Position numbers and translations under genes: made by a program. The notes beneath the pieces were generated by a model that made no database searches, had not been told where the DNA came from, and worked only from the letters and a program-made list of their open reading frames with translations. From Anolis carolinensis (Eukaryota), in the NCBI RefSeq assembly GCF_035594765.1, contig NC_085844.1:188248107-188312106 (forward strand): a stretch of 64,000 bases of DNA. The letters are read 5' to 3'. Below, piece by piece: positions 3,329-60,810 of this stretch. Position 1 is the stretch's first letter. Each line of letters starts with the position of its first letter.

Positions 3329-3455
3329 TTGCTACTGAGCCGTTTTTTAAGAGAGGGCACTCGCTCCAAGGCAAAGGATACTGGAAAGATTTGAAGAAGT
3401 AAAAGATGCTCCACCCTATGATCACATTGTAATACAGCCCGACAAACAAGCAGAC
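3329..3455 (-). CDS. SLC6A17: SLC6A17 coding exon 3 (gene exon 4), 127 bp
   Basis: [42 protein letters not shown]; acceptor ttttgtcag|GTC, donor A|gtgagt; SLC6 TM3 YYN motif and LPW..C. Confidence 0.96.
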
Positions 3456-5785: not shown

Positions 5786-5943
5786 TAGGCAGCTGGCAAA
5801 TCCAATGCCCCCCAACCGGGGACAGACATAATTCCACACTCCTATGCTGCCACGGCGGATTCTCTGGCCCACAGCTAATTCCAGAAAGAACAGAGGGATT
5901 CCGATGAGGATGAGCAGTATCAGGTATGGAACAAGGTAGGCAC
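5786..5943 (-). CDS. SLC6A17: SLC6A17 coding exon 2 (gene exon 3), 158 bp; absent from the ORF track
   Basis: (G)[52 protein letters not shown]; acceptor ctttccag|GT, donor CTA|gtgggt; phase 1 in, 0 out. Confidence 0.96.
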
Positions 5944-8525
5944 CTGGAAAGAAAGAGATGGGTTGTTAGAGCAGCCTGCCTGGGATTATGCTCTTTTAGA
6001 GTGACAATTTAGTATTCTTCTGTTCCAGAACTGTCTATGGTTCCAGGCTTCCTAATCATAAACATCCCTGCTATAAAATAAGCTTTATTGGTGGTAAATG
6101 ATGCAAAAAACTGTACTCAGCTGAAAATCATTCCAGCCCTTTCACTTAAGGGCTCTAGCTTCTTGTTACAATCAATGATAGAACTGGGACCCAAGACAAT
6201 TAAACCTTACCCATGATATCTCTGGTTAGTGCTTCAGCTCTCCATCACTGGTTATGTGGGGGCCCTGAGGTGGAAGTACACTATCTCCAGAGTGAGGCCA
6301 ATGGAAGATGGATTCCCAAGGACAACATTGTGTAAAAGCAAATATATGTATGTTTATGTGTGCATATAACATGAACCATTTCTCCTCTCACAGCTAAAAA
6401 AACCCATGCAATTAGGTTAGCAACAGAGGAAAATTCACTCCCCAAGTCCATTCTCAGCCTTCCTATCTTTTTCCAACATTGAATTTCCAAGCTAATGTAA
6501 AAAAAAAATCACATAAGGTCATGCACACAAGTTGGCTCTTTCTCTATAGTTGGCTCTTTCTCTATATATTTGACCATGATGCTAACAAAGCCTTCAAAAT
6601 CCATCTGCCTAACATCAGAGGCCCAGGTAGCTACAATTACATTTTACACAGCTATCTTCCTCCAAAAGGGATCAATGTACTCTCACCTTCCCACCTTTTC
6701 TCATTGCAACAACCCTGAGAGATATGTTAGCCTGACAGCTAATGACTAGCTCAAGTTCACAAAGTAAGCTCATTGGTTGAATGGATTCTGGTACAACATT
6801 CTGACCATTACACCACACTGGCAGTGTCCAAATCTGAGAGAGATCATAACCTCTTCCTACTTGAAAATTTTTATATTTTACCAGCAATGGCTCAGTTTCT
6901 TGCTTAGGTGGAAAAGGATCAGGATTTGCAGATGTGCTACCTATCTGCTGACACAGGTCCTATTGTTACTGCTTCATTCTAAAGAGCCATCCATTCCCAT
7001 CAAGGGCAGTTGGTGGGCTTCTGCATCAATGGTGTAATGTTGCTCCTTTCATTTTTTTAATTCTAGACTTTAATAGAGCTGTCCAAGTTGTTGTATTCTT
7101 CATCCAAAAGAGATTCAGCACTATGGATAGGTCCTTTAGAGTCTAGAATACAGTTTTATTCACAACCCCACTGACAAAACAAGTGTCTCACCAAACTTGA
7201 GGCTAGCTCTAAGAAAGCTGTGGCCCCTGTGTGTGAGATATGCTGCTATTGATAGAGTTCACTTGCTTTTTGTCTTTACGCTGGGTGTTGGAAAGTGGCT
7301 TGTTCTTTTCCTGCCTCAAGATTTTGGCTGCTGTGTTAACAAAAGCTGTTCCCTGTGACATGAAGGGTGCCAATATTAGTCCAGAAAAGAGCAAACCAAA
7401 GTACACAGTGGCTAAACTAGGAATAATTCCAAACAAGACTCACAGTATGAAGGGATAATGGCAGCAAGAGGAACTGGGACATGAAAGGGGAAAGCTGTAT
7501 TTGTGGGACTTATTTTTATATCTTCTGATTGAGGAGAGTAACAGGAGCAACTGGAAATATGCCTATATTCCCATGAAAGGCATGCAATATAACAGGATAG
7601 AATGCTAATAGAGATACTTAAGATGTTCTTTCTCTTCAGGTGTACACACACAAGAAACAAACATACTTCTCAAGTGATGCAGAACATTTGCAATGAACTA
7701 TGTTGTTCAATTGTAATTCTGGGAGTTATTACAAGAATATGTGCAGAGAGTACTTTAGATCTGGGGCGGGGAAGAATACACAATAGTAGTAGCACATGCT
7801 CAGTTTCCTTAAGGTACTCATTCTTTGATGAAAACTACAATACCTATTTAAGTGGACAGTGTCAGTTCTCAACACAATAAAACCAACAAAAATCCAGTGG
7901 ATGATGCATGAACACTAATCACAGCATACTTTCCTCTGAAGAAAAAAAATCCTAGGGCAATCCATTGAAGAGTTAGCATTAGTATTGTATTAGTAATGAG
8001 AACCTTAGCAACCTACATTAGATTCATCCATTGCAATATGACTGCTTACAACTGCTGAATATTCTTTACTACTAACAGCATTTTAAAAAACGGATTTTTA
8101 TATGTGAAGCTCTGGGAAAACTTGGTCCCTAGCAAGGTGAAATACAATTGTTAAGGCTGACGTATGATTTATTTATTCCAAGCAATCTATATTCTGCTTG
8201 TTAATTTTTAAACACTTTCCCAGAATAGCCAATAAGAAAGAATTAAAAGGGAGTTTAAACTCATTTCCAAGGTAGACAAAAATATCTATTAGTAAAAACA
8301 AGAATGTTTTAAGACAGAGGAGAATCAATAAAGCAAAATGTATTACAAAAGAGAACGAATGCAGTTCCTTCAGGCCATCTTTCATTTTCTGCCAAAATAA
8401 CAGCAGAAACCTTAATCTTAAAACATACATTTCTTATTTAACATCTTATATTTAATGATAAATGGCGAAATAACATTCAAGTTCCATAAGGTACTACAAG
8501 GTGCCAGGCAATACCTTACCTCCTA

Positions 8526-8857
8526 AAGTAAAGGTAAAGGTTTTCCCTGATGTTAAGTCCAGTCGTGTCCGACTCTGGAGGTTGGTGCTCATCTCCACTT
8601 CTAAGCCGAAGAGCCAGCATTGTCCGTAGACACCTCCAAGGTCATGTGGCCAGCATGACTGCATGGAACGCTGTTACCTTCCCACCAGAGTGGTACCTAT
8701 TGATCTACTCACATTTGCATGTTTTTGAACTGCTAGGTTGGCAGAAGCTGGAGCTAACAGCGGGCGCTCACTCCACTCCTCGGATTTGAACCTGGGACCT
8801 TTCGGTCTGCAAGTTCAACAGCTCAGCGCTTTAACACACTGAACCACCGGAGGCTCC
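8526..8857 (-). mobile_element. Sauria SINE, full length
   Basis: tRNA-like head, (ACCTTT)n tail, 14-bp TSD TACCTTACCTCCTA (8512-8525, 8858-8871). Confidence 0.92.
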
Positions 8858-10320
8858 TACCTTACCTCCTACAGTACCACAAAATATATAAAGCAATATG
8901 TAATGTTAATCATATTTTTAAACAAATTTGATTATTGCAGTCACTCTTATTTGAGAGGAAAGGCAACTGTGCAGTCTATTATGGAGAAGGCAGTTGTAGG
9001 ATCTGATCTAAAACATACTCATGATCTGTGCAGTTGGACATTTCTCTTGTCTACCTCTCCCAACCTTGAAAGACTGATAACTGTAACCAGCATATCTGTG
9101 ACAAGTTGCAGTCAGGTAAGCAGTTGTTTTCAGCTGTAAAACTATACAAAACCCCAATCAGACTGGGAGCACACATCAGATGAAGGCCTAACACCTGCTG
9201 TTCTTCCAGAAGAAATGAGGCCAGATTAAGTTAATCCATTTAAATACATCCCCAACATGACATGCAGTTTTGGTCCTCTGTCAAAGGGAGCTATTTGTCT
9301 AGTTTCTGCCATGCCACTAGACCATGCCTACAATCTCCAGAGACTATATTTCCACTCTCTAATCAAAATGAACCAGGTCACCAAAGGAGACCATAGAAGT
9401 CTGTTTCTATATCACTGTTGCTCCCAGTTTGAGCATGTTTCTTAAAACAATAGTTACCAATCTTTAGTTAATCAAGTGTTTGGAGCTTCAACTCCCAGAC
9501 GTCCTGGCCAATTTGGCCAATTGTTTAGAATTATTGGAGCTGAAGTCCAAAATACCTGGGGACCAAATGCCAGGAACAACCAGCTTAAAAGATTCTATCA
9601 ATTTAACCATCATTTCTGCCTGTGTAATAATTTGACAACAAAGTTTTCTTTGTCTTTTCTTTTGCCTTTTGATGCTTGTAAAACATGTAAAACATAAGCT
9701 AGGATAGTTGTATACCCCAGTTCCATTGACTGTCAAAATAGTTGGTAGCAGGATTGCCAGATTGCAAACTAGAAATGATTTCTGTTCCTTTAAGGTTGTT
9801 CAGCAGAAAGAATTTCAGCAAATATTGCTTATTACCTGATTGCATAACAAGGCACACTTGCTAAAATTTCCACTTCTGAATAACTATTAAAGATACCAGA
9901 ATCATATCCAGTTTTTAGTCTGGAAATTCTAATTGGCAAATAGCTGCTAGCCACAAAATTAGTATACAACAGCTGTAATCTGTACATTACACATCGGCCC
10001 CACAATCTATTACAGCAGATTAATATATACTAATTTACTTCAGCACTATGGATGTTCAGCTGGGCGACTGAAATATTCTGTTGAGTACACAGTGTTCCAG
10101 AGAATTGGCCCAGTCTCTTCCTCTTTGTAAGGGAAAGCTGTTCACTCTACTAAACATATGTGCACTTTATTATTGGTATAATGGAGGCGGGGGAGAATTG
10201 TAAAGTACAACTACTCTCAGTGAAAATTTGCTGTCTTCACATGTAGCAGCACTGTTTTAATATATACAAAAAATCTTACATCACCAGTCAGGTAGTTGAA
10301 GTCATATTGTTGATCACGAT

Positions 10321-11092
10321 GGGCCCTTCTAGACAGGTCCAAAATACGAGACTTGTCTCGCTTTTACCAGAGGCGTCCAAACAACACCTCCTGTAAAAGC
10401 AAGACAAGTCCCGCATTTTGGACCTGTCTGGAAGGGCCCATAGTGATCAATCATATGATTTCAATTACCTGACTGGTGATGGAAGGTAAACTGAGTTTTA
10501 CCAGTTAACTCTGTGTTAATTAAACACCTCAACAAATCCGGACCTTCCTGAAAGGCCTGGGTTTGTTGAGGTACTGGGTCTGTGGGGATGACTCTTGAGA
10601 CTGCTTCTGCAGTCCCGGGGGCCTGTACCCATAGTCATCCCGCTTCTTTGGGCTACTAAAAGCCCGGAGGAGTGGGATGGCGCCCACTTACTCCCCTCCA
10701 ACCCCCCATTTGGGCCCCAAAACATACCAGACAGGCTTGCTGGCAGAACAGCCATCTCCCTACAGTCCTCCTGGTGTGAGAAAATGGTGCATCAGGAGGT
10801 GGGGGGGGGGAATTTCCCTCCTCTCTCCTCCCTTCTGCTAATGCATCATTTTATCACATCAGGAGGACTGTAGGGAGAGGTCTGTGATGCCAGAAAGCCT
10901 CTTTGGTAAGTTTTGAGGCCTAAATGGGGGCTGGGGGTGTGTGTTTGGATGTCATCCCAATTTGACTCAGGATGGCATGTAGCCACACACCCCAGGGAAA
11001 GTCCAGGATTTGCATTGGGGACTAAAACCCATGCAGACATGGGTTATTTTAACCCATTTCTGTGCAGGTATTAACTCTGTCTGGAAGTGCCC
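10321..11092. mobile_element. PIF/Harbinger-like non-autonomous element with rearranged left end
   Basis: Termini gggcccttctagacag / ctgtctggaagtgccc. Confidence 0.55.
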
Positions 11093-11886
11093 ACAGAAAA
11101 CAGAGTGGGAAACCAAAGAGGCTGCTAGTTCTATCCACACACTTATTATATTCTGTATAGTTCAGCATCTCGGTCTTAAAATATTTGGAACAGATTGTTT
11201 AAAATAATCTAAATAAAGTAATCATGGGCTATTGTTGGATAAATATCAAAGAATCCTATGGCACTTAATACAAGCCAGTTCATTAAAGCATGGGCATTCA
11301 TGGACTCTAGCTTATATTGTTCAAGTACTTCTTTAATGTTTCCATTGTTTCTTTAAAAAACAAACAAACATGAAAATCCACTACATATGAAATTAACTGT
11401 TATCACAACTTCATCAATCAATGTACTGTTTGTTTTTGCCTCCATAAAATATTGGGATAAATTTTCTCAGTAGTTTGGGAGAAGATTAAGTATCAGAGAT
11501 GCATTCATTACAATGAAGTTTATACCAGGGAGAAACTACATACTCTTGACCAGATTTCTTTCCATAGTTCATTGCCAATGACAACAATATTTCTTTCCTT
11601 TTTCATGAGCATTTAAATACCAAGATTTTGATCAATGGCAGCAACCTTGGCCTTATGTAGGACAAATCAGGAGCAACACTACCATTTTGTTTGATCAGAT
11701 CATCATCTAGTGTAACTAGAAGATCTAACTGCCTTTTATACTTTCCAGGATTCCAAAAAGAGTTTGCAGCTACATGTGGTTTTTTTTTTCCTGATCAGCG
11801 CAAAGATTTTTGCTATTTACGCACTAAACACACACACATTCAGCTTGCATCAGCTAGTTTCAGTTTCAAGAACTATCAAGGTATAG

Positions 11887-12121
11887 GGTTGTTGTGTGTT
11901 TTCTGGGCTGTATGGCCATATTCCAGAAGTATTCTCTCATGACGTTTCACCCACATCTATGGCAGGCATCCTCAGACGTAGTGAGGTACCTCGCTACCTC
12001 TGAGGATGCCTGCCATAGATGTGGGTGAAACATCACGAGAGAATACTTCTGGAACATGGCCATACAGCCCAGAAAACACACAACAACCCTGTGATTTCGG
12101 CCATGAAAGCCTTCGACAACA
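11887..12121. mobile_element. Penelope-like terminal repeat inserted as an inverted (palindromic) pair, with hammerhead motifs on both strands
   Basis: ~103-bp inverted arms centred at 11987/11988; 13-bp flanking duplication TATCAAGGTATAG (11874-11886, 12122-12134); CTGAGGA...GAAAC motif. Confidence 0.8.
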
Positions 12122-13410
12122 TATCAAGGTATAGCCATGAAGTTAGCTAATGAGTGAGTGCTGGGAAATATATGAAGAAGCTCATAGGATGACAGCAACT
12201 CAAGATACAGATCTATTAAGGAAATGACAGATATTTTTCATAAACTGAGCTTCCTTGAAGTGCACAGCTTGGGAAAGTGCTGATTTATGTAATTGTGAAG
12301 GAAAGGATAAAAGGAACTGTCAGAATTCCCCTTCCATGTTGTATTTATGAATGATAGGCAGGTTCCTGTTGAATAAGCTCTATTTAAGCAAATCTGGCCT
12401 TTAGCAAAGAGCTGGTTAAAAGGTTCTAATGCTTCCAGCTCTTTCAAAAGGGCTACAGATAATGTTCTTATGGTCAGAAATTTGTAGGTGTTAAATAAAT
12501 TTGACCAGAGGACTCAATATCCTAAAGGCACAAGATCCTATCTTATCTTGGAAGATAAGGGTCAGTACCACCAAGGAATATATATTTAGAGGAAAGAACT
12601 GTCAAAACCTTCACTGAATATTCCTTATCTAAGAAAACCCTATGAAAACCATGGAGTTACCAGAAGTCAGCAGGCAACGTGAAGACAGATAGACACACAA
12701 AGAAAGTTGACCAGACCATGGAAAGGGAAGCGGGGTTGAACTACAAATCTTAGAGTTCCTCAGCCAGTTTTCCCTGAAAAAGCTCCTGCAATTTTAATTC
12801 TAATTTGACATCTTTCTCCCAACAATGCACCATCATGGTTGGCAAGATGTCACACATTGATCTGTTGGCCTGCTTTGCAGCCATTAAAGGAATGGAAACT
12901 GTGATACAAAAATAGCTCACACTCCAAATGCTGAGTCACCTGATCTCCAAATGGGTTAGATGAGCAGGCCCATTTCTGCTCATAATGGTCAGAAACTATG
13001 CCACAAAAATAGCATCTATACCAAAGAGACACAAGTCACTTGAAAATGATCCAGGAAACACTGGCACTAGCACTGCCAGTGGACTTTCATGCAAATAGGT
13101 TAGAGAAAACAGCCAAGGGAACATATGCTCAGATATGAAAGAGAAATCATGGAATCCAAGATCTCAGCCACAGGGTTTATTCACTAAACAACCTGCTGTA
13201 ATGCAGAAAAAGAAGCAAATCAGTGATACTACGGTACCCTCTAAAAGCCTCTTAGATGTATCTTGATTGTAAAGCATGCTAAAATAAGAGGAGAATAAAA
13301 TTTCCCAATCTGAAACCCAGTTTCTGTTTGTATTTTTCCAGTAATTCTCAGCCAATAAATATTAGTACTCACTTTCAACTCTCCATCCTTACTCCTGGTC
13401 CCTGTATCTC

Positions 13411-13560
13411 AGGCCACTTCCACATTACTATATAATCCAGATTATCAAAGTAGATAATCCACATTGTCTGCTTTGAATTGGGTTATATGAGACTACACTG
13501 ACATATAATCCAGTTCAAAGCAAATAATCTGGATTTTATATGGCAGTGTAGGAGGGGCCT
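13411..13560. mobile_element. Harbinger-like MITE (related copies at ~14258-14394 and ~60512-60686)
   Basis: aggccacttccaca ... tgtaggaggggcct termini with internal ataatccag repeats. Confidence 0.6.
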
Positions 13561-13592
13561 CAGAGACTTCATTTTTAATCACATGTTTTTCC

Positions 13593-13915
13593 TGTTGGCG
13601 CAGTGTGTTAAAGTGCTGAGCTGCTGTACTTGAGGATCGAAAGGTTGCAGGTTCAAAGTCCGGGGAGCGCAGTGAGCACCTGCTGTTAACCCCAGCTTCT
13701 GCCAACCTAGCAGTTCGAAAACATGCAAATGTGAGTAGATCAATAGGTACCACTCCGGTGGGAAGGTAATGGCGCTCCATGCAGTCATGCCAGCCACATG
13801 ACCTTGGAGGTGTCAATGGACAACGCCGGCTCTTCGACTTAGAAATGGAGATGAGCACCAACCCCCAGAGCAGGACACAACCGGACTTAATGTTAGGGGA
13901 AACCTTTACCTTTAA
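13593..13915 (+). mobile_element. Sauria SINE
   Basis: Near-identical to the other copies; ends in acctttaccttt. Confidence 0.9.
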
Positions 13916-14697
13916 CCTACTAATTTATTTTTGAAATAAATTAACAGCCTTCAGTACTAATGCATAGCGTACTTTTCCAACTCTATTCTATGATTCTATT
14001 ATTCTAACTGAACAAGCTACCGAAGGCTAACTGTAATAGTAAGGCACATTTCTATAATCTTATTTGCTTTAGCCATGGATCTGTATGTATGATCAAAGAA
14101 AATACTTGGCTAAAATCTACTATAAATAAGAAATGCTGCCAGGCTAATTCAGCAATACTTTACTATCACAAGTTGGTATCTTTATCAAGTAACTAGCAAT
14201 CAACCAAGTGAGCAGTATTTGCATACAATGATAGGAAGGGGAACATTTATTGTCTAAGGGCCCTTCCACAGAGAATAACTCAGAATATCAAGACAGAAAA
14301 TCCCACAATATCTGCTTTGAACTGGGTTATCTGAGTCCACGCTGCCATATAATCAGATAATGTGGGATTTTATTCAGCTGTGTGGAAGAGGCCTGGGTGT
14401 AAAGGGACCACAAATTAATCTACTAAAGTAATGATTTGATATAGAAATACAAGAAGAGTTTGGTTCAGAGCAGCTATTAAACACTTTCTGTTCAATCAGC
14501 CCTCATGATCATACAAATGAATGACAAGAAAAACCCAACAATGGGTTTGAATATTTGGTTATCTGAAAAGCTGGATAGCCACTGCCAGTCAGTAGTTTAA
14601 CTTGGTATATATGTATGGTCTGATTCCGAGCTTGGAAAATGTACATTTTTGGACAAAACCCAGAAGCCTTCTGTTGGCATGGCTGTGTTGCTTAGAG

Positions 14698-14805
14698 TAA
14701 TGGTTCTCAACCTGTGGGTCCCCAGATGTTTTGGCTGTCAACTTCCAGAAATCCTAACAGCTGGTAAAACAAAACACCTGGAGACCCACAGGTTGAAAAC
14801 CACTG
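14698..14805. mobile_element. hAT (Charlie-like) MITE, 108 bp
   Basis: TIR tggttctcaacctgtgggtc / gacccacaggttgaaaaccactg; 8-bp TSD GCTTAGAG. Confidence 0.85.
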
Positions 14806-14975
14806 GCTTAGAGGATTCTTGCAACTGACATCCAAAGAAGTAAATTTTCCAAACTCTGTTCTGATAGATAAGGGATAATTTACAGCTTTCAAACCTATGC
14901 TCCCTTCTTCTACATTATGTCCATAAACAAATGTCTTTTAGTTTGCTCATCATGTTTTATTCCTTGTCTACTTAC

Positions 14976-15258
14976 CTCCACCATTTTTTTGACACAAATA
15001 TGGAAACCGCCATACATTCCCCAGTCCCACTGAGTAGCCAATCTGAGCCAAAATGTACTGAAGCTTGTTGTTCCATGCTGGCCTGTCCTCAACAGGCTCC
15101 TCCACATCTGGCTGCTGTTTGCTCCAGTTTTCTCCAGCCACATTTAGGACACTGTGCCTATAGTCCACAGGTTCCTCAAGGGCCAGTAGATCAGCCACTG
15201 ATTCTGTGACAGGTTCATTGCTTTGTTCCCGCTGGGTCACTTTGCTGCTCTTAGGCAT
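14976..15258 (-). CDS. SLC6A17: SLC6A17 first coding exon (sodium-dependent neutral amino acid transporter NTT4/XT1), 283 coding bp; exon probably begins at acceptor 15384
   Basis: [33 protein letters not shown]...[36 protein letters not shown]; the [19 protein letters not shown]-terminus fits SLC6A17 rather than SLC6A15; donor G|gtaag; acceptor ttctgtttgctttcttgttccacag| at 15385. Confidence 0.96.
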
Positions 15259-16031
15259 TGGGACTGTCTAGCTCAACCTCTCCAATTATATGATGAAAGT
15301 GGTAGAAGCAAGATGGAGGCAGTATATTTCAAAACAGGTGCTGGATTTTGAGAATGGACTTCAGAAGTTGGTCATCTGTGAGACCTGTGGAACAAGAAAG
15401 CAAACAGAATAAAAATGTAAAAATACATGAGATTTCTCTACTTTCTTCTCTGCTGAAATACACATGTCCGTGCATTTCACTGTCTACAACAAACACACAT
15501 AATGAAGAATGGTTATTAGTTAAACATTTCAAATCCTTGCAGACCTCAGCATTTACTGGTCAAGTTGACTGAAAGATTCGAGGCTTTGCTAATAAAGTTC
15601 AATCACTTAGAGATTCACTATCCAGTGCCTTTAATCCTCTCCTTTTCTTATTGTTTTGAATCTATGGAAGCTTAGGGATTGGCATTCACTTACTATAATA
15701 ACTTGCTTCACATTTATTGCATGCCAAAAATGTGTCAGAAGCTATTTAGCTTAAAATATGGTGGCATTAAAAAGGCATATGCTTTGGCAGTTTTTCTAAG
15801 GGAACAGCAAATATCAAGCTTATCTCTTCATTGCTGACATTATATAAGTAACTGGGATGGCCAGCAATCTTCTGTTAAATTGTCTGTGACAGTTTTACAA
15901 AAGATAGTATCTGTAGAACATTTGGCATTGCTTGTGAGGCCATCGATTACTATGCCTCTTCTTCATTCATAAACTGCAGTCTCTCAATAGAGGTCCTTAG
16001 CTCATATAGTCTGGCACTATCCCACTAACAT

Positions 16032-19206: not shown

Positions 19207-19517
19207 CACTATGTAACACAATTTTTGTTCCTGAATTATACGTGTCCTTTCCTAATTGGTTCTATAATAAAGACATGGAAAAAAATTATTAAACTGCAAA
19301 AACTTTGTTTTTGTAGGTCATCCTACAGCACATTTTGCTATAGTTTTTCAATGAATATCTTAGAGTCTCAACCAATTCAACATAATGTGTGGCAGCCATG
19401 AAAACAAAGTTTCTGGATTATAACAACTGTTTTTAAAATAAGTACTGCACAGTTAAACAAGAAATAATATTTTCAAACCAAGACCAGATTTTTTGCCCCA
19501 AATTTTGTTACATGGTG
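19207..19517. mobile_element. Tc1/mariner-like MITE
   Basis: TIR cactatgtaaca / tgttacatggtg with TA on the left. Confidence 0.6.
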
Positions 19518-27186: not shown

Positions 27187-27516
27187 CAGCAGAGTCTCGC
27201 TTATCCAACATAAATGGGCCAGCAGAACATTGGATAAGCAAAAATGTTGGATAATAAGGAGGGATTAAGGAAAAGCCTATTAAACATCAAATTACATTAT
27301 GATTTTACAATGTAAGCACCAAAACATCATGTTTTACAACAAATTGACAGGAAAAGCAGTTAAATACATGGTAACAATTTGTAGTAATTACCGTATTCAC
27401 AAATTTAGCACCAAAACATCGCAATGTATTGAAAACATTGATTACAAAAACAATTGACTACTAAAAGGCAGACTTCGTTGGATAATCCAGAATGTTGGAT
27501 AAGCAAGACTCTACTG
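27187..27516. mobile_element. pogo/Tigger-like MITE
   Basis: TIR cagcagagtctcgcttatccaac / gttggataagcaagactctactg; TA TSD both sides. Confidence 0.85.
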
Positions 27517-28665
27517 TATATATAATTTTATATTAGAAGAGTTTTGTAGTATTTTGCAATAAATATTTTGTAAATAAAGGTACATTTAACTACAGTTTCC
27601 CAGTTTCCCAGTTTCCCTATGTATGGGAACTTTTGGGACACCCTGTATATTTCTTGCTATATAGTCAATAGTTAATAGCCTTAGGGTATTCAGCAAGGAG
27701 GGTCAGGGAATGAAATACTTCTTTTCAGTTGCTTCCATAACCAGTGCTTTCATACTCTTGTGCTTTGTTTTATGAAGGAGAGAGGGAGAGAGAAAAAAAA
27801 CATTCCACTTAAAGATTAATAATCTCGAAGTGAGGAATTAAGTCAATGCATCTGATACTGTCCTTGTTGATTCCTTGTTTGTTATCAGAGCAGCAGACAA
27901 CAGTTCTAACAATATTACCCTGTATTTGAAATCCATGAAAGATTTTAGTCATATGACTGGCTTAAATGTGACTCACAAGATTACATTTTTCTACTTAAGA
28001 GTCATAGGGAAAATTGGCATTTTGATAGAAAAACACAAGACCAGCTTCATTATGAAAAACAGCAGAAGGGGACTGAAAGTTAATACTGAACTGCCCAGCA
28101 TCATCACTGTGGATTATGTTCAAATGTTAATGGTTAGCTACTGTTTACTTTCTCTTGTTTATCTCACTCCCGATTTGTGATATTTTAATATTACGCAGCT
28201 GTGGATATGGGAAAATTTGTTGTAGGCCAACATAACTTTGCCTTTTATTTTATACATTTTTACAGTGGTGATATCTATGACCTGTTGGGTGCATAGAGTT
28301 CATTGAATCCCTAAGAGACCTCATCAGAGCCTGCCTTTCTCCATCACAAAAATGCTCTAAAATGGACAGTTATACTCCCAGAAGCCTACAAAAAGCATAT
28401 CAATTCTATTACTATTAGGGGGCAGCTTCTAGGCCTTTGGAGAGAAGGACAAAATACCCTTTCTATAAAATTAGAAGGATTTTTGTTCTTTTCTGAATAG
28501 TAAGGGGGATAGGTGGTAGAAAACAGGATGACACAACCTGCCAGACCAACCAGTATTATCCATCTCATACTCACTGTTCTTGTTGACATGTACCTCCAAA
28601 TAATCTGTGAGTTATGGTGACCCCATCAAATGATTTTCTTAGATAGGCATCTTCAGATGAGGTTT

Positions 28666-31882: not shown

Positions 31883-32299
31883 TGTTGTCAAAGGCTTTCA
31901 TGGCCAGAATCACTGGGTTGCTGGGAGTTTTCTGGGCTGTATGGCTATGTTCCAGAAGCATTCTTTCCTGACATTTTACCCATATCTATGGCAGGTATCC
32001 TCAGAGGTTGTGAGGTCTGTTGGAAACTAGGCAAGTGGGGTGTTATAGATCTGTGGAACGTCCAGGTGAGGGAAGGAACTCTCTCTGTTGGAGACAAGTG
32101 TGAAAATTGCAACTGGCCAGCTTTCAGCTTCAAAGCCTGGCTGCCTTCAGCCTGGGGGAATCTTTTATATAAAAGCCCACTTGCCTAGTTTCCAACAGAC
32201 CTCACAACCTCTGAGGATGCCTGCCATAGATGCAGGCGAAACGTCAGGAGAAAATGCTTCTGGAACATGGCCACACAGCCTGGAAAACTCACAGCAACT
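31883..32299. mobile_element. Penelope-like element, inverted pair of terminal fragments
   Basis: Same family as the 11.9 kb copy; 12-bp flanking duplication CAAAAACCAAAT (31871-31882, 32300-32311). Confidence 0.8.
32208..32248 (+). ncRNA. Minimal type I hammerhead ribozyme motif (Penelope-associated), intact core
   Basis: CCT-CTGAGGA-T-GCCTGC-catagat-GCAGGC-GAAA-CG-TC-AGG: conserved CUGAnGA and GAAA boxes, 6-bp stem II, GUC cleavage triplet ending 32245. Confidence 0.75.
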
Positions 32300-32311
32300 C
32301 AAAAACCAAAT

Positions 32312-33800
32312 CGCGGAAACCCCAGCGCGCAGCTCATCCCTGCCCACCTCGGTGCACCCGAACGAGGGCTCTGCGGTGCGGGCCTGCCAAAGGAGCGGGG
32401 AATCGGGCTCCACGCGTCCATTATTCATGAGGGCGGCGCGGCGGCTGCTGCTTCTCCTCTCAATGTTACCATCAAGGTCAGGCTCCAGGAGGCATCGATG
32501 GCGGGAGGAGGGCCTGGGACCTTGCTTTCCTGGTGAGGCGGCAAAGGCGGGCTTCTCCCCCCTTTCAGAGGCAAGCCACTCATCCTTACCTATCCTTCCT
32601 GCCTGCCTGCCTGCCTCCAAGGGCCCGGGCCCTTCAATTCCGCCCCAAGGGCCAGTTATTTGTAGGCTGCAGGTGAGGCTCGCCGTCCCCTCGGCTCGCC
32701 CATGTCTCCTTCTCCCCCGAGCCCCGTGTCTGTTCCCGCCTGGCAACGGAAGCTTCTCTCCGCGGAGGAGGCGGCCTGACCTGTTTCGAGGGAAACGGAG
32801 GGAAGGCCAGATGGGGCAGGAGAGCGCCGTCGGGCCGGAGGGGGCGGAAGGGGCCTCCGTACCGTGGCATGAATGCCGTGTGCCCCCCCCCCCCCTCCTT
32901 TCACTGCCAGGGCCCGGGGTCAATGCTGGGGAAGGTGGGATTTGCAGTTTGCCAAAGGCGGCTTAAGAGCTCCTAGGACTCCATGGCCTTGAGCCAGGGC
33001 AGTTGAAATGCTGCCAAAAGTATGTTCCGTTCATAAGGTATAGATGCGCCCTGAGAGGCTTACCTGCGCGGTGGCTTCAGCGGGACGACGCCGGTAGGGC
33101 TCCTGCAGCTGCGGAAGGCGAAGGCAACCTGGCCCGGGGCGCCTCTTCCTCTTTCCCGGGTGCCTTTTCCCTCCGCCGCTCCCGCTCCTCCGCGCTTGCC
33201 TTCAGGTGCCGGCCCTGGTGCCTTTTGCTGGCTCGAGCAGGAGCTGAACGCGCGCGCGCGCGCCCGCCCAACTTTGCACCGGTGGCTCGTGCCGGTGGCG
33301 CGCGCCGGTGCTGCCGTGTGCTGATTGCTGCTGCTGCTGCTAATGCCCAAAGCGCGGGCGCGTGAAGGAAGGGAGGGAGAGCGCGAGCGCACCTGGGAGC
33401 GTCGTCTCTGTGTGTGTGTGTGTCTGTCTGTCTTCCCTCCTTTCCCACCCCTTCCTGAGGGAAAGGCGAGCGCGTCTTTTTTGGCTGGGCGCGCGTGACG
33501 TGGGCTTGAGTCACTCGCCCAAGGATGCGCGTCAGTGACGGGAGAGGAGGGGGCAAAGCGCGGGGCTTGAGGGGTTGGCTGCACCAAGCCCTGGGGTCCC
33601 TGGGGAGGGCTGAGCCTCGCTGCCTGCCTGCCTGGACGACTGGGGCCAAGGCCGACCGCGCCACCTGATGCTGCGTGGGCCAAAGACCAGCCTGGCTCAC
33701 TGCGGGGAAAGTGAGCCCCTGAGCAAGGCGGCTGCGAGCGGAAGCGCACGGAGGCCCTTGGCTTTGGCCTCCGCGAAGAGCAGGACGCCTCCTTCCAAGA
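32312..33800. promoter_or_regulatory. SLC6A17: CpG island / SLC6A17 promoter region
   Basis: Very GC- and CpG-rich stretch in an AT-rich background; TGACGTGG (33496), AP-1 TGAGTCA (33507), paired CRE half-sites CGTCAGTGACG (33530-33540). Confidence 0.85.
33064..33400 (-). other. SLC6A17: Putative non-coding exon 1 (5' UTR) of SLC6A17; 5' boundary approximate
   Basis: Consensus donor CAG|GTAAGC at 33064/33063 inside the CpG island; no minus-strand ATG in the segment; ~17.7 kb upstream of exon 2. Confidence 0.7.
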
Positions 33801-34513
33801 ATCACAGAATCCTCGAGGTGGAAGAGAACTCAAGGGCTATTGGAAATAACTACACCCAGTCTCTGGGCACTCACCCCTTTGGAAATAAATGGCAATCCGT
33901 AACTTTATTGAAAATGGAAAAAAATGATGCCATATCCCTTTGGCAAATGTGAATCTCCATGAATATGTGGAGATCACCTTTTGAAAACCACTAGTCAAGA
34001 AAAGCCAACCCTTTGAACAAGTGATATTCATAAGCATTCATGTAATGGCACACTGGTAACTCAGCTGTTAAACTGAAGAACCATGTCTTTGAAGGACAAA
34101 GACATGCTACTATAAAAATATATATTTGGTTAGCAGAGGATGGTTGTTTCTTTCAAGTTGAAATTGCAGTTGCCCAAAAGATATACATTCCCTTGAAACC
34201 TCTTGGTGTTTAAAATATGCAACCAGAGATCTTGTCTTCTTTGAAAAATAACATATCTTGTTTACTAACAAACTTCTTGTATTAATTCACCTTACAGGCA
34301 CATTTCTTATTGAAGGTCAGTTATAAATAGGATGTAGTTTCTCTCCGTGTTGAGTACACAGGGTATCATTCTTAATCAATAGTCCATAGTCTTCAAGCAT
34401 ACTTGTACTCACTGAAGTCCATAAGCATACTCCTATACTGAAGTCCAAACAGCAAAATGCATGCATCCACCTCCACTGAAATCTGATACAAAATGAGAAA
34501 AAAATCTGATGCA

Positions 34514-40265: not shown

Positions 40266-40754
40266 ATAAAGTTGCTAAGCACACAGCATTAAAACTTTCT
40301 CTGCAGCCTCACCTTGTTTATGGAACTCCTTTCTGAGAAAGATCAGGTGGGTCTCATGCCAAATATCTGATATGTGTTTAGAATCGTATTGCTGCATAGG
40401 AACTTGCCAATGAGAAAAAAAAGAGAGAAGGGGGATATCACTTTGGTAATCCTGGTGGGCAGAAGAGTGATAAACAAATGTCTTTAATAAATAATAAAGG
40501 AAAGACCTCTCTTCACCGAACATTTACATTAAAAAGAGGGCCTCCCTTCCTACTGTCTCATATTGACAACATTCACAAATGATATATTCCCAACTAAGGT
40601 TGAAAATCTATGTCTTTTTACCTGGGAGCTAGCCCCCATTTAATTAGTGGGATTTACTTCTTAGTATGAATACAGAGAATTAAATCCCACTAATTAGTTT
40701 AATCAGGGGGATTTACTTCTTAGTACATATACAGAGAAGGGCCTAAATTCCCTA

Positions 40755-41472
40755 AAGGCACTCAATCCCATTTGATCTTGGAAGCTAAGCAGGGTCAGCG
40801 CTGCTTAGCACTTGGATGGGAGACCAGCAATGAATACCAGGTGTTGTTTATTCGTCCAGTTGCTTCCAACTCTTCATGACCTCATGGACCAGCCCACACC
40901 AGAGCTCCCTGTTGGCTGTCACTACTCCCAGCTCCTTCAAGGTCAAGCTAGTCACTTCAAGGATACCATCCATCCATCTTGCCCTTGGTCGGCCCCTCTT
41001 CCTTTTTCCTTCCGTTTTCCTCAGCATCATCTTCTCCAAGCTTTCCTGTCTTCTCATTATGTAGCCAAAGTACTTCATCTTTGCCTCTAATATCCTTCCT
41101 TCCAGTGAGCAGTCGGGCATTATTTCCTGGAGTATGGACTGGTTGGATCTTCTTGCGGTCCAAGGCACTCTCAGAATTTTCCTCCAACACCACAGTTCAA
41201 AAGCGTCTATCTTTCTTCACTCAGCCTTCCTTATGGTTCACCTCTCACATCCATAGGTTATTACAGGGAATACAATTGCTTTAATTATGCAGATCTTTGT
41301 TGCCAGTGTGATGTCTCTACTCTTCACTATTTTATCGAGACCAGATACTGTAGATGATATTTCAGAGGACAGAAATGGAAAATCACTTTTGAGTATTTGT
41401 TGCTTAAGAAAGCTCTATGAACTTCATGGTATCATTATAAGTCAGCAGGTGGTTTGAAGGCATATATACACA
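40755..41472 (+). mobile_element. 5S rRNA-derived SINE interrupted by BovB fragment
   Basis: gatcttggaagctaagcagggtcag...cttggatgggagacc..gaataccaggtg is 5S-like; body resumes after 41340 and ends ttgaaggcatatataca; related degenerate copy near 12530-12700. Confidence 0.65.
40843..41340 (-). mobile_element. RTE/BovB LINE 3' fragment nested in a 5S-derived SINE
   Basis: PWTARRSNQSILQEI..KYFGYIMRRQESLEK..GKRKRGRPRARWMDG. Confidence 0.9.
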
Positions 41473-52420: not shown

Positions 52421-54489
52421 GAAATGTCCTAAAACACTTCACCAAAGCTTCTTTTCTCATCTCTTGAACAGTGCCAGCAGTGAAGGGTGCTAAAGACCTA
52501 TGCTTCATACATTAAAATGCCTCTTCCTTGTTCTGTGTCAGCTTGACCTTGCTAAAGAAAAAGGAAAGAAAATAGTTTGTGGGTTAGGTTAGTACAAATT
52601 GAGTATTCCTTATCTACAGTGTCTGAGACCAGAAGTACTTTGGATTTCAGATTCCCCCCCCCCCCATTTTAGAATATTTGTATGTACACAAGGAGTTATG
52701 TTGGATATGGGAACCAAATCTAAGCACAATATTCATGTATGGTTCATGTACATTTTATGCACATAGCAATATTTTTAATAATTCTGTGCATTAAACAAAG
52801 TGTTTATACATTGAACCATCAGAAAGCAGAGGTGTCACTATCTCAGCAACCCATGTAGATGATTTTAGACTTGAAGAATTTCAGATTTTAGATAATGGAT
52901 ACTCAACCTATATCATCACTATTAAGAACTCCAGTGGGATCCACAATTCCTTCGGGTGAGAGAGGTGTGGGAATAGAGATGAACAGCTGGTCAGGGGTTG
53001 ATGCAGGGGACTAGAGACATATAACAAAGATCCACATTGCACCTTCTAATAAGCACTGTATACTGTATAAGAAGGCAATATTTGTGTGTATTTAATGCCT
53101 ACTGAAACACAATCAAACTTCCTTTCTAGGCCATCAGTCATCAGTAGACGTACAGACCTCTAGAGCTTTCTACAACTCTGTGTCTCTATCTCAGCCAGAC
53201 TCCCAGAATGAAATATTCTTATTTTTTGGACTCCAACTCCTGGGGTATATCCCCTAGGTACAATAAAAGCAGTCAATGTCATCATTTTAATTGCATTGAT
53301 TCTCTCTGATGGAATTTTGAGACTTGCAATTTCACAAGGTGCTCAGAATTCTTGAGTACAATCCCCTTGAACTACAACACAAGATCTCTTTCTGAGGAAA
53401 TTATAAGCCCTTCATAGAAATGCAGAACAAACAATTCTATAAGATGGAGACTAGTAATTAAAATGGTATCAAAGCCAGCATGATGTTGGGTGTTGTGAAA
53501 GGAGTCAAGGATACTAGGGTTCAAATTTTCACTTGGAAACAGACTCGATGATTGTGAGCAAGTCACATACTCTCAACTTCAGGTGAAGGCAATAGTAAAC
53601 TGGTTCTGAACAAATCTTGCCAAGAAAACTTCTTAGAGTCTCCAGGAATCAGAAATGACTTGGAGGAACACCACAACATCAACACAAGGACAATAATTAT
53701 TGTTTGGACATGCCTTAACATTTTTAGCCAACATGGTAAGTAGCTGGGGATACTTGGAGTTATAGTCCAAAAGGTTACTTTTCCAGGCTCTGCTTTGAGT
53801 TCTCAATTATCCCATTCTCATTTTGCTTTCCCCCATGACTCCTTTGCTTCCTCTGTCCTGCTTTGCACCCAATGCATACTAATACGAAGGAAAGGGCAAG
53901 CCAGGCAAGTGATGGAGTTGTCAGTGGCTACTGCTGCTATTCTTTTTTCTTGTGGTTACCATTAGTTGGTTCAATGTTTAAAGAGTCTTAGGGTACATGG
54001 GGAGCCAAAGGAAGGAGAAAAAGATGAGGGATGTGGCAGCTAGAGGTTCCAGAAGTGCAGATCAGCATTAGGCCTATAGGAGTGTGGGCATAGATAAGCC
54101 TTTGGAAATGCCAGCCCTGAGCCCATCCTCAGTTAAATACACTTAAAACTGCAGGCGGGCACATATTTTTAGGAAAGATCATGACACATTTCTCTGTTCC
54201 TGTATTTTTGTTCATTCGCTCATCCTTCTTGTAGTTATTTGTCCCAGCTTGCTACCTGGTTTTATGAGTCAGTCTTCAATTTGAGACAGCAGCACTGAGG
54301 AGTTTCCAAAACATAGGAATTGCACATTAGTTCCTTCCCTTCAGGTGTGTTCTGTGAAAGAAACTGTGTAGAACAGTTAGAAATCCTGATTAAGATGTCA
54401 AGGCACCAATGATCTGGAAAACAAATAAAAACTTTATTACAGGAATTCCCTTCTCGATTGGAAAATTACTCAGGCACTAATCTAAACAG

Positions 54490-54887
54490 AGGCCCCTCTG
54501 ACCTCGAAGGGACCCCCAGCAGCCCAGCCGGACCCCCGTTTCCTGACAGACACCCCTCAGGCGGTGACAGGGCTACAGCAAGAGGAGACCCCCAGCACAC
54601 TGATGCCCTCGGAGCCCCCCTTCACCCCGGGGGCTGCAGTGGGCCGGCCAGGGAGACCCCCAACGCCCCAGCAAGGGGCTGCTCCCAGCCAGCCGGCCCC
54701 CCGGGGGTCCTCCTCTCCGTCCCACACCACCCTCGCCATCGTCAGCCTCCTGGGAATCGCGCTCGTCTTGGTGGCCGTCGTGGTTTCCTTGGTTTGCCGG
54801 AGGAGGAGGAGGCGTCAGGAGGGGCCACTCCACCCTGCTGCCCTCGGTGAGGAGACCCATTGGCTGAACCTTCCCGAGAAGACCTGA
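54490..54887 (+). pseudogene. Orphan coding-like segment: Pro/Thr/Ser-rich stalk + transmembrane helix + basic stop-transfer + short tail (CXCL16-like C-terminus); terminal exon or duplicated gene fragment
   Basis: Open frame from 54486 to TGA at 54887: ...SSSPSHTTLAIVSLLGIALVLVAVVVSLVCRRRRRRQEGPLHPAALGEETHWLNLPEKT*; in-frame stop at 54483; possible phase-1 acceptor ctaatctaaacag|; followed by UTR-like sequence. Confidence 0.55.
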
Positions 54888-55362: not shown

Positions 55363-57038
55363 GCTTCATTGTAGCAAAGTGCTGAGAGAGAACTGATGGG
55401 TAGAGAAGAAATCGGGAAATATCCAGTTTACATCATCTTAGGTAGACTCACACTGGAGCTTTCACGTGGGCAGCCCCGTTCTTCTGGTACGAGCAGAATT
55501 CTGGGAAATGTAGTTTAGGCCTTTTGAAAACTCTGCTACAGAGGTCCTTGCCTTCCCAAACTACATTTCTCTGAAATCGGCTCACACCGGAAGAACAGGA
55601 TTGCCTGCATTACAGCCCCAATGTGATATGGCTGATAGAGGGAGGACACTTTGAGTCACTGCATCTTTGTTATTTATACCAGCTCTGAGGCATTTTTGAC
55701 TCTTCAATGCTAAGTGTTGTTTGCACTTCCAACATTCTGTAAAGCACCGAAAGAAGGCTAAGCATATGTGGGATCAAGTACACAAAAAGCCTACAACGGG
55801 TAAAACTCATCAGCAGGATTAAGTACATCTATTTGCACCTTACCTAGCGGTTAGCATCCACCCAGTTAAATTGCTGTTTTCCATCTCTCCCCCAACAATT
55901 TTAGCCTAATTTTAGAGATTTTAAATGATATTTTAAAGATTTAATAATAATCATGTGGATTATTTTATGTCTTGTTTATTTATGTCAGTTTATAATTTAC
56001 TGAGTTGTTCTTGATTCATTTCTTGATTTGTTTACATGTTACTATCGGCACTGAATATTTGGGGAGATAGGGTGGGTTATAAATAAGGTTTCAAACCTAT
56101 TCCAAGGAGAGATTGGTGTATTTGTTTGGTACTTCTGTTTTTGTACCACCAGCCCTGCCCCATGCTGACACATTTTCAATTATAACTTTAATATTTTGGG
56201 GGGGGGGCACACAAATCGGTCCTTCTAGGACATGAGTGGAGGCATAGCAGAATCAGCTTATCATTGTACTAGAACAGATAGCCAAGTCCAGTGAAAAGCA
56301 ATCTGAGTACCTGCGAGCAGTAATGATGCTTTCCACATGCCCAGATACGACTGAAATAGAAGTACCAGCCCACCTGACCAATGACTTTTTAGTTGTAAAA
56401 GAAAAGGGTCTAGAATTTGTCACTGTTCTCAAAGTTGCTATGATGAGTAATCTAGACATAAGCGTGAAAATCACCTCAGTCCGTTTCTAAGCAACTCTTT
56501 GAAGAGGTGCCAAAGAGCTACACCAAAGCACACAAGCCATTTTGTTGCTATTTATTTTGCAGGATTGAGGAGTTCTTGCTAATTTTGGGCATCCTGGGCC
56601 AGCCATGTCTTGAACTGTGGAACACACAGCTGAATGTATTGTTCAATTATGATAGCATAGCATCCTTGTGGGAAGGCTGCTGAAAACATCACTGACTCAT
56701 ACATACAGCTTTATTTGGGGAAAACAAGGGTGAGAAACATGCACCCTGCCAAATGTTGCTGGATTGTTACTACTGGAATTCCTCGCTACTGATTTATGGG
56801 CGGCTGGGACTTACAGTCCAGAGCTATTTGGAATGTTCCATGGCTTTCACTTTTGAAGCAGACCCTAATAGCCATTGACAAGCCTTGCTGTAATGCTTAT
56901 GAATTCACAACAAATAGGTACCCGTCACAATCAGTTTTAAAAATAAAAGATTTACTGCCATTTTTGTGAATAGTGTTAGCTGAGCCTTAATACTTTTCTT
57001 CATTATACAGTACAGTATTATCATTTTAGTCATGGTGT

Positions 57039-57937: not shown

Positions 57938-58692
57938 CAAACATGCTCTTTATATTTGTGACTTTATATAGAAAACCTGTGTAGTATATAAACATTGGTT
58001 TCTAAGCTTGCATTATATGCTAGCTATGCATGCTGCAGTATTGGAGGTGGGGGTTGGGGTTCACTGAATCCATTTTGGTGACTCTTGCTCTCATCACCAA
58101 CCTTTTTGATGCATTTTGGATCATTAAACAATAGGCTTGATCGATCCATGAAAAATTTGATTCTAAACTCGTTTCAAAACTAGAGGGGGGCAGCGTTTCG
58201 TTTCTGAAGGTATTTCCGAATTTTGCCCCCCAAAAAATTCGAAATTAACGAAAATTCGTTATTTTCAAAATTAATTCGTTAATGGCAGACGCGCATGCGC
58301 AATTCCCAAAAACAGCACAGAGGGAGAGGACTTTACAGGACTCTCCCACCCTCATTTTTTGAGTGATCTTCTTCAAACTTGGTACAGTGGTAGAACACAT
58401 TTAGTACTGATAGCTCACCAAAATTTGGAACGTTTCCCTTATCCTCTGATTTTTGGAGAATTTTCATAGCTTTTATAATAAACCATTTTTTAATAATTGC
58501 AGAAATCTGTTCCTGGTTTGAAAGTCTTATTTCCTGTTAAATTGGGTTGTCTTTACTGTGAAAGTCATTGTTCTACTTCAGAAACTTTGTTTTTGTGGCT
58601 GAAACTTTGTTAAATTGGTGTGTGTGTGATATATACTGTGTATATATATATATATAGTCCCTGCATATGTGTGTGTGTGTGTGTGTGTGTAT

Positions 58693-58852
58693 AGGTAAAG
58701 GTAAAGGTATCCCTTGACATTAAGTTCAGTCATGTCTGACTCTGGGGGTTGGTGCTCATCTCCATTTCTAAGCCCAAGAGCCAGTGTTGTCCATAGACAC
58801 CTCCAAGGTCATGTGGCCGGCATGACTACATGGAGTGCCATTACCTTCCCAG
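58693..58852 (-). mobile_element. Sauria SINE 3' fragment inside the hAT element
   Basis: ggtaaaggtaaagg tail then SINE body truncated at ttaccttccc. Confidence 0.85.
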
Positions 58853-59216
58853 AAACACCCAGAAAATGGGAATTCCAGACAGGAAACAATCAGGGCCAGC
58901 TAATACCTCCCAACAAAGGATTCCCCCAGGTAGGAAGCAGCCAGGCTTTGAAGCTGCAAGGCTATTCAATGCTAATCAAGGTGACTAATTGCAGCATTCA
59001 CACTTGCCTCCCACAGACAAGAGTTCTTTCTCCCACCCTGGACCTTCCACAGATATATAAACCCCACTTGCCTAGCTTCGCACAGACGTCAAAACCTCTA
59101 TGTCTGCCACAGATGTGGGTGAAACGTCAGGAGAGAATGCTTCTGGCACATGGCCATAGAGCCCGGAATACATACCACAACAGTGTGATCCCGGCCATGA
59201 AAGCTTTCGACAACAC
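58853..59216 (+). mobile_element. Penelope-like element terminal fragment inside the hAT element; hammerhead core disrupted
   Basis: Homologous to the 11.9 and 31.9 kb copies (gccatgaaagctttcgacaac end); CTGAGGA core partly deleted. Confidence 0.75.
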
Positions 59217-60810
59217 AACCACAGTATCCATTCAAGTTCATGTAGCGTGGTATGGAGAGACCTGTATTGGGGGGAGGGAGGGTGAGAATCTGGGCCCCTG
59301 GGAGTCGTAGTCCTCCCTCCCTCCCTCCCCGGGAGCAGCCGAGGACGGGCCTGGCCCACACCCCCTCGCATCCCGGGCCTCTTCCTCCTCACCGCCGGGC
59401 CCCTCTCTGTTTCTCTCGGTCTCTCCAGGCCTGAGCTGAGGCGAGGCGGCGGCGGCGGCGGCCATTTCCCCCCTCCGTCTTCCTCCTCCTCCTCGGCCTC
59501 CTTCCCCCTCGCCCCCTCCCATTGGCTGAGCCCGTGACGCCCCTTTTGCTGAGGGGCAAAAGGAAAGGGCCTGAATGGTGGGAGTTTGGGTGATTTGCAA
59601 AAGCTTTTTTTCCTAACGAAAAAAACGAAGAAATAAGAAAAAACGGCCTCTTGCGATTCGAAACCGCGATATCCAGACGTGTGGACAATCAAGGCCGTAT
59701 ATTGCTTCAAAACAAACGAAAATAACGAATTAATAACGGGTAACGGGGAAATCGAATTATTTGAGCAAGCCTATTAAACAATACCAGCTTCCAATTCTGG
59801 TCACATCTCCATTTCTCTGGCTTTGTGTTTACAAACAGAATTACTGCTGTGTACTAATTAAATACTTCGTGACTACCAATTTAATTTTATTCATAGGGAT
59901 TATTCCAGCTCTGTTTGGAGGGGAAGGGTAGAGAGTAAAGTGCCATTATAAATGTCTGGGCTCTGTTATTAGAGCAGGGCTAGATGCTGAGCTGCATGTT
60001 TTTGATACCACTTGGAAGTGCATTGGAAAAGGGTTTTGCACAAACAAGGAGTCCAGGACGACCTCCTTTAAAAAAAACATTTTCCTACATGATGGTTAAT
60101 TTCCATATAGAAAAAGATATAAGTTTGGTTATTCATATTGCTGATGGCTCCATAGGCAGGAAAATTCTCACTATACCCTTCTGAGTAATTTCTTGAAAAA
60201 TTAACTAAAACAGTTTGAAACAATAACTCAGAATAAAGCCATTACCATAAAAGTCAGCATTTTTTAAATTTAAAAATCTTGTAAAGCAGGCAATTTTTTT
60301 TAAAAAAAACTTTACAAGGTAGGCAGTTTATAACCCTACAGAAGTTATTGTACTGCAACTCATAAAATTCATCTCCCATTAGCTCCTGTTGTTTAAGGAT
60401 GGTAGGAATTTCATTCATATAGTATCTGAAAAGGGAACATTTGCTGTGTACTCTTACCTTTGAACTACAGGCAGATTCCTTTCCCCCCCATATTTACTAT
60501 CAGAGGGATTAAGGCTCCATTTACACTGTCATATAATGCAGCTTGAAACTGCATTATATGAGTTACACTAACCATTATATGATTAGTGTTGACTGATATA
60601 ATGCAGTTTTAACTGCATTATATGAGTCTACACTGACCATATAATGCAATTTCAAACTGCACTACGATGACAATGTAGATGGGGAGTTATGGAAACCTGA
60701 GAGAATTAAGGTCTCTGAAGTAATACACTATGTCATAGACTCCACAGCACCTTTAGACATCACCATACCCAAATTATAATGGCTATGTAATATAACAAAT
60801 TGTATGACTA

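Follow-up and report, generated by a model that had tools for sequence, protein, structure and literature searches.

The locus examined here raises a question: how did a patchwork of unrelated repeats come to lie between the two ends of one DNA transposon? The transposon lies in a stretch of 64,000 nt from Anolis carolinensis that was analysed as a whole, hereafter the window. The first-pass annotation had read it as a hAT family that collects cargo, acquired by template switching during gap repair, and had set this against nested insertions at one site.

The unit spans 58132-59773 (1642 bp), exactly the coordinates given in the first-pass annotation. Its claim that the unit was inserted as one piece is borne out by these limits, by the 8-bp target-site duplication TTAAACAA present on both sides, as in the hAT superfamily, and by 11-bp terminal inverted repeats, TAGGCTTGATC and TAGGCTTGCTC, with an identity of 10/11. 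Identical 8-mers were obtained in 6 of 200,000 random pairs drawn from the window, which sets the chance level for such a duplication. When the end motif was scanned across the 64,000-nt window, the two ends of the element were the sole matches. The terminal bases TAGGC fit the hAT end motif YARNG at 4 of 5 positions, and the published hobo_AC end likewise fits at 4 of 5 (PMC3014272). The positions of the features are listed in Table 1.

The two arms behind these ends are not long inverted repeats; they have an inverted 14-mer and an inverted 12-mer in common, together with many TTCG/CGAA words. In keeping with hAT biology, the CpG-rich left arm (58143-58300) is likely a transposase-binding region. 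Its weak match at 27.4 kb falls within an unrelated mariner-type element, and an exact scan with the left end found no stretch in metagenome contigs and none in viral contigs, both collections without lizard genomes. That mariner-type miniature element (about 27190-27518) has an end that resembles, by eye, those of TcMar-N7/N8/N12_AC in the table of PMC3014272. Among 36 stop-to-stop frames of at least 35 aa, 35 were searched against Pfam and none matched a family, the remaining frame lying almost wholly in the left flank, in agreement with the annotated absence of a transposase from the interior. Inside the element Rfam gave two weak matches alone (E 0.028 and 0.15), far below the family thresholds. 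The element is a genuine copy of a cut-and-paste transposon that has no transposase of its own.

Table 1 Features of the transposon copy and of its target site, from left to right (positions in the window; X1 and X15 are sequencing runs).
Feature	Position	Strand	Remarks
Left target-site duplication	58124-58131		TTAAACAA; fits NTRNNYAN of hobo-N1 to N12
Left terminal inverted repeat	58132-58142	+	TAGGCTTGATC; fits the hobo_AC and hobo-N1-6 end strings
Left arm	58143-58300	+	CpG-rich TTCG/CGAA words; CpG o/e 1.92 (58132-58300); X1/X15 depth 54,000-175,000
Unassigned multicopy segment	58301-58480		X1/X15 depth 126,000-242,000 (bins 58344-58491)
Decayed end of Chapaev3-type non-autonomous element	~58481-58619	-	72.5% over 153 aligned bases to 19207-19517
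TG/TA microsatellite	58620-58691		Repeat arrays; left out of the contig depth profile
SINE 5' half (ACA/Sauria type)	58692-58851	+	157 bases align to positions 3-160 of the 332-bp free copy
Penelope-type end	~58852-59215	+	About 364 bp, abuts the SINE break; 58915-59215 aligns to 31883-32288 and 11888-12121
Multicopy spacer	59216-59261		X1/X15 depth 12,000-17,000 (bin 59232-59305)
CpG block with promoter-like and first-exon-like motifs, inward-facing	59262-59543	-	GC 0.72, CpG o/e 0.58
Right arm	59544-59762	-	CpG o/e 1.53 (59544-59773); X1/X15 depth 38,000-86,000 (bins 59528-59749)
Right terminal inverted repeat	59763-59773	-	TAGGCTTGCTC; fits hobo_AC TAGGCTTGMTC; 1 base off the N1-6 string
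Right target-site duplication	59774-59781		TTAAACAA; same 8 bp as left

Beyond the element, 143 of the 279 window frames of at least 60 aa were searched against Pfam and five of them matched: three SLC6/SNF exons, one reverse-transcriptase fragment (17.3-17.9 kb) and one weak HTH. The three exons belong to a gene of the SLC6 (sodium:neurotransmitter symporter) type at 3288-15267 on the minus strand, and the 143 frames searched revealed no tie between the element and a host gene. A 5S rRNA-like Rfam match at 40734-40852 (47.2 bits vs a threshold of 38) is probably a 5S-derived repeat or pseudogene. Two inverted Penelope-type ends at 11888-12121 form a hairpin, which is the source of spurious microRNA-family matches, and a large CpG island at 32200-33900 has an inverted Penelope-type end (31883-32288) at its left edge. 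A GC-rich frame on the plus strand at 54486-54887, without a Pfam match, closes with hydrophobic residues, then arginines, then a stop codon, as does the final exon of a gene for a single-pass membrane protein. The stretch 55490-55650, 2.5 kb to the left of the element, carries ZNF143-like, CCGGAAG and CCAAT motifs and is possibly a promoter.

Transposons with such ends have been described in the green anole. In Novick et al. 2010 (PMC3014272) the autonomous hobo_AC elements measure 9-15 kb and end in TAGGCTTGMTC, and 15 non-autonomous hobo families of 16-689 copies each are distinguished, which diverge by about 1% or less from their consensus; the target pattern of N1-N12 is NTRNNYAN. The interiors of the hobo families are read there as captured genomic DNA with old TE fragments, and so are the Chapaev and Sauria-SINE fragments held by autonomous hobo_AC. 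Deletion and recombination made the short families. Group A among them descends from autonomous elements by deletion and carries a 520-bp Penelope piece and a 333-bp SINE; hobo-N1 and N6 share a 176-bp deletion in the SINE, and in N4 both pieces are shortened, Penelope to about 270 bp. The lengths given are 1854 bp for N1, 1995 bp for N6 and 2042 bp for N4, within a range of 1.3-3.4 kb in the text. Bourgeois et al. (PMC7561263) describe 45,421 Hobo insertions across anole samples, skewed to singletons and rarely fixed.

We compared the element with these families by their published end strings, lengths and descriptions. Both ends match the hobo_AC string TAGGCTTGMTC and also fit the N14 string, the right end being one base off the string of N1-6. 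The target site TTAAACAA fits NTRNNYAN, as do 2% of the 8-mers in the window. Both cargo pieces of group A, SINE and Penelope, are present, and the 157 aligned bases of the SINE equal the 333-176 left by the published N1/N6 deletion. The Penelope piece (~364 bp) and the total length (1642 bp) match neither the 520/270 bp nor the 1854/1995/2042 bp in print, and because of this the element was filed under group A and not under a named subfamily. On these sequence features it is likely a young group A member of hobo-N, nearest to hobo-N1/N6. Its class is already in print and so, very probably, is its family.

The interior is, as first described, a chain of unrelated truncated pieces, and every piece listed in the annotation was found: a Chapaev3-type fragment, the TG/TA microsatellite, half a SINE, a Penelope-type end and the CpG block. 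The segment 58301-58449 had no relatives in the rest of the window. The Chapaev3-type piece matched the element at 19207-19517 at 111 of 153 bases, with a score of 117 vs at most 45 in 200 shuffles, and the alignment begins at base 2 of that element's end. The label "Tc1-like MITE" given earlier to the 19.2-19.5 kb element should be dropped. This element is 311 bp long, carries 17 of 18 bases of the Chapaev3-1N2_AC end string CACTATGTAACAAAATTT at each end, and is flanked by CTA and TTA, a 3-bp duplication with one mismatch; Chapaev3-1N2_AC itself is described with ends CACTATGTAACAAAATTT, a length of about 320 bp and a TWA target (PMC3014272). Tc1/mariner was rejected for 19207-19517: its left flank ends in TA and its right flank starts with TT, so that there is no TA duplication, and its ends begin with CAC. 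Together with the TcMar-like end at 27.19 kb, this second fit to the published table speaks for the green anole as the species. The text of PMC3014272 places a Chapaev insertion in group B, not in group A.

The SINE half is 87-91% identical to three free copies in the window, which are 87-93% identical to one another over their first 165 bases; the 332-bp free copy carries its own 14-bp target duplication. The 5' start of the half is intact and adjoins the microsatellite. Over 58915-59215 the Penelope piece is 75-86% identical to free copies in the window, and the loose ends of these copies near 58868 would place its left edge near the SINE break. The element is without four bases behind 59098 that a high-depth family contig and the free Penelope copies have (59095-59103), in a stretch where Penelope ends hold the core of a hammerhead ribozyme; Rfam listed no hammerhead in the whole window. 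In naming 58852-59215 Penelope and 58692-58851 an ACA/Sauria SINE we follow the first-pass annotation, and both assignments are in line with PMC3014272. The spacer shows small indel variants at a depth of 900-2,200, and neither the spacer nor the CpG block had relatives in the rest of the window.

The absence of target duplications around the internal pieces had been taken as a mark of capture. None above chance was indeed found, but the test is a weak one: matches of at least 5 bases turned up in 1,200 of 2,000 random pairs, and the same kind of search gave a clear target duplication for one of the three free SINEs. As none of the pieces retains both of its ends, this absence separates neither capture from insertion nor deletion after capture from piece-by-piece template switching. 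The same loss of ends leaves room for an account in which ordinary insertions nested in an ancestral hobo, were later cut back by deletions and multiplied together with it, without any capture of flanking genomic DNA; any target duplications would be gone either way, and the intact 5' start of the SINE beside the microsatellite fits this account too. The Chapaev piece, however, shows decay (72.5%) well in excess of the age of the hobo families, and PMC3014272 argues that Chapaev, described as extinct, could not have jumped into a young element. We regard ancestral nesting without capture as very improbable, although the argument from decay weakens if the history of hobo is older than its present copies show. 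The cargo is old, at 87-91% identity to free copies for the SINE and 72.5% for the Chapaev piece, and the decay of the latter, as PMC3014272 also argues, makes it more likely that old genomic DNA was captured than that a fresh insertion occurred.

We then turn to copy depth. Contigs of 4 of the 24 listed sequencing runs were placed on the window: X1 and X15, which are of DNA type, and X17 and X19, whose library type is not on record and which are RNA by guess. Summed contig depth serves as a rough guide and not as a copy number; single contigs are more reliable in this respect. In X1 and X15 the flanks had a depth of 8-11 (the left flank was covered in X1 alone of the four runs) and the CpG block one of 7,100-11,900, about 840-1,300 times the flank; the interior stood at hundreds of times the flank depth in both DNA-type runs. 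Single contigs with family forms reached about 240-430 times the flank depth. Among them, a contig with four extra bases behind 59098 had a depth of 3,293 in X1 and 2,967 in X15, and a joint from 59094 to 59387, from the Penelope piece to the CpG block, had a depth of 2,627 in X15 and was present also in X17 and X19. This joint has a microhomology of 4-5 bases; it marks a deletion in a sibling form, in which it connects the Penelope piece with the CpG block. A joint of low depth from 58563 to 58869, seen in one contig each in X1 and X19, connects the Chapaev piece with Penelope in a different copy. At position 58405 more than 98% of the depth in all four runs showed a different base, so that the copy studied here carries a private change. 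The summed contig depth over 58344-58639 (126,000-295,000 in X1/X15) lay mostly above that of the hobo arms, and this segment may belong also to another, more abundant repeat.

None of the 32 pieces listed (205,866 further) crossed the junction of SINE and Penelope, and none of the 15 joints listed (129 further) was an empty site. The junction contigs, at both ends in X1 and at the right end in X15, hold 23-25 element bases, below the 31-base rule, and suggest that the insertion is present in both runs. These depths bear on the idea that a small hAT landed and that insertions then accumulated at this locus. Free copies of the same repeat families do occur in the window, as such an idea would have it; against it, the spacer and the CpG block, without relatives in the window, stand at about a thousand times the flank depth, and contigs of high depth run from Penelope into the CpG block. 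Local nested insertion is strongly disfavoured, and we give it next to no weight. Because the interior is hundreds of times deeper than the flank and sibling variants occur in two DNA-type runs, the mosaic is likely inherited family cargo and not a product of nested insertions at this locus.

The reading that best explains the data as a whole, to which we give a probability of about 0.82, is a group A hobo-N copy whose mosaic was inherited from a long capturing ancestor and reduced by deletions, its CpG block being most likely a remnant of the transposase promoter. An ancestral, much longer hobo would have taken in genomic DNA that already held old scraps of Chapaev, SINE and Penelope. Internal deletions would then have shortened this ancestor, at the cost of its transposase and of the 3' half of its SINE, and the reduced form would have spread to hundreds of sites. 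The present copy would have been moved in one piece, in trans, by hobo_AC transposase made elsewhere, and the CpG block would most likely be left over from the promoter and first exon of the transposase. For capture by autonomous hobo_AC and for the history of deletion we rely on the text of PMC3014272; the subfamily, the mobilisation in trans and the origin of the CpG block are what we infer from this copy.

Piece-by-piece collection is the alternative closest to the first-pass annotation. In this Pack-TIR sense, a short non-autonomous element would have gathered each piece separately by template switching in gap repair. In favour of this, unrelated pieces do abut without target duplications, joints of the microhomology type occur in the family, and PMC3014272 allows that non-autonomous families also incorporated DNA. 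The break in the SINE, however, corresponds to a deletion described for group A, whose ancestor had the 333-bp SINE whole; the SINE was probably cut by later deletion. According to the same paper, group A arose from autonomous elements through deletions. In addition, Tan et al. (PMC8277862) associate gap filling chiefly with single-copy Pack-TIRs and replication fork switching with those present in many copies. Deletion after capture accounts better for the truncated pieces, and piece-by-piece switching, which is not needed, appears very unlikely. Of the wider claim, a cargo-collecting hAT and not nested insertions, one part holds: a single hAT unit moved whole, and its cargo is common to many copies. 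The family, on the other hand, very probably belongs to a published hobo_AC group. The annotation had also said that an interior matching that of an autonomous hAT would speak against its reading, and this partly applies, because according to PMC3014272 group A consists of deletion products of 9-15 kb autonomous elements that already held captured genomic DNA.

The CpG block deserves separate treatment. On the minus strand it carries CGTCA at 59539, CCAAT at 59525, an ATG at 59465 followed by 24 codons, and a splice-donor-like GCG|GTGAG at 59393/59392; a ZNF143-like motif lies at 59311. We take the CGTCA, CCAAT, donor-like and ZNF143-like motifs to be putative signals of a promoter and first exon. 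The block begins 230 bp inside the right end and is oriented inward, and the sibling deletion 59094 to 59387 keeps the donor-like site. Because the block sits just inside the end and points inward, we lean towards the view, based on these motifs, that it is a leftover of the promoter and first exon that belonged to the transposase itself.

The block alone could instead be a captured host-gene promoter and first exon, which would be compatible with the family assignment. Vertebrate housekeeping promoters typically carry motifs of this kind. Ten contigs of X17 depart from the element at 59543 and run on into a second GC-rich stretch that contains CCAAT; a longer form of the promoter-like block thus exists. 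In the same run the block stood at 0.65 of the right-arm depth, vs 0.14 and 0.20 in X1 and X15. In X19, however, the ratio was the opposite (0.03), and GC bias can explain both the enrichment and the depletion; with X19 depleted and the library types not on record, the enrichment in X17 is no sign of activity. Protein searches with the frames of the block found no relatives and hence no host protein that starts like its frame, a weak result given just 24 low-complexity codons before the donor-like site, and the position and inward direction are those where a transposase promoter would be. A host origin of the block seems less likely than a native one. A word search of the text of PMC3014272 found none of the words promoter, CpG and exon, and the open-access papers listed for these subjects included no later work on hobo_AC and none on a promoter in such elements.

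As what looks like a further copy of a known kind the element has little new significance, since DNA capture by anole hobo has been in print since 2010; the promoter-like block is the sole addition to the published picture. Should the block be the promoter and first exon of the transposase, the first intron of that gene would hold the cargo, which would explain how elements of 9-15 kb stay active. If it is host-derived and still working, then a young transposon family would be dispersing a promoter among the members of a wild vertebrate population. That young, mostly unfixed hobo copies scatter a working CpG-island promoter, captured from a host gene with its first exon and splice donor, to about a thousand anole sites is unlikely; if true, transcription start sites would differ between individuals and chimeric transcripts would arise.

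Among known systems, plant Pack-MULEs belong to the Mutator superfamily and their cargo consists mostly of gene fragments. The element resembles them as a cut-and-paste element that ferries genomic DNA, but it is a hAT and no gene fragment has been demonstrated in its cargo. Animal Pack-TIRs are defined by a cargo of 100-5000 bp with a unique parental copy of at least 90% identity that is not flanked by TEs (Tan et al. 2021, PMC8277862), in a paper whose main text contains neither the word lizard nor the word anole. Microhomology at the breakpoints of capture is a further mark of theirs; in the present family the microhomology observed is that of a sibling deletion joint. Like them, the element encloses foreign DNA in the range of 100-5000 bp between the ends of a single TIR transposon and is multicopy through transposition; unlike them, its named cargo is old repeat DNA with no parent identified. 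Autonomous hobo_AC, as described in the text, has the same TAGGCTTGMTC ends and likewise holds Chapaev and Sauria-SINE fragments, whereas the element is about one tenth as long and without transposase. The closest likeness is to hobo-N1_AC and hobo-N6_AC, which share with it the ends, an 8-bp NTRNNYAN site, the lack of a transposase, a SINE cut to about 157 bp, a Penelope piece and hundreds of copies. They differ in length (1854/1995 bp vs 1642 bp here) and in the Penelope piece (520 bp vs about 364 bp here), and the published passages on group A name neither the Chapaev-like piece nor the CpG block, both of which the element carries.
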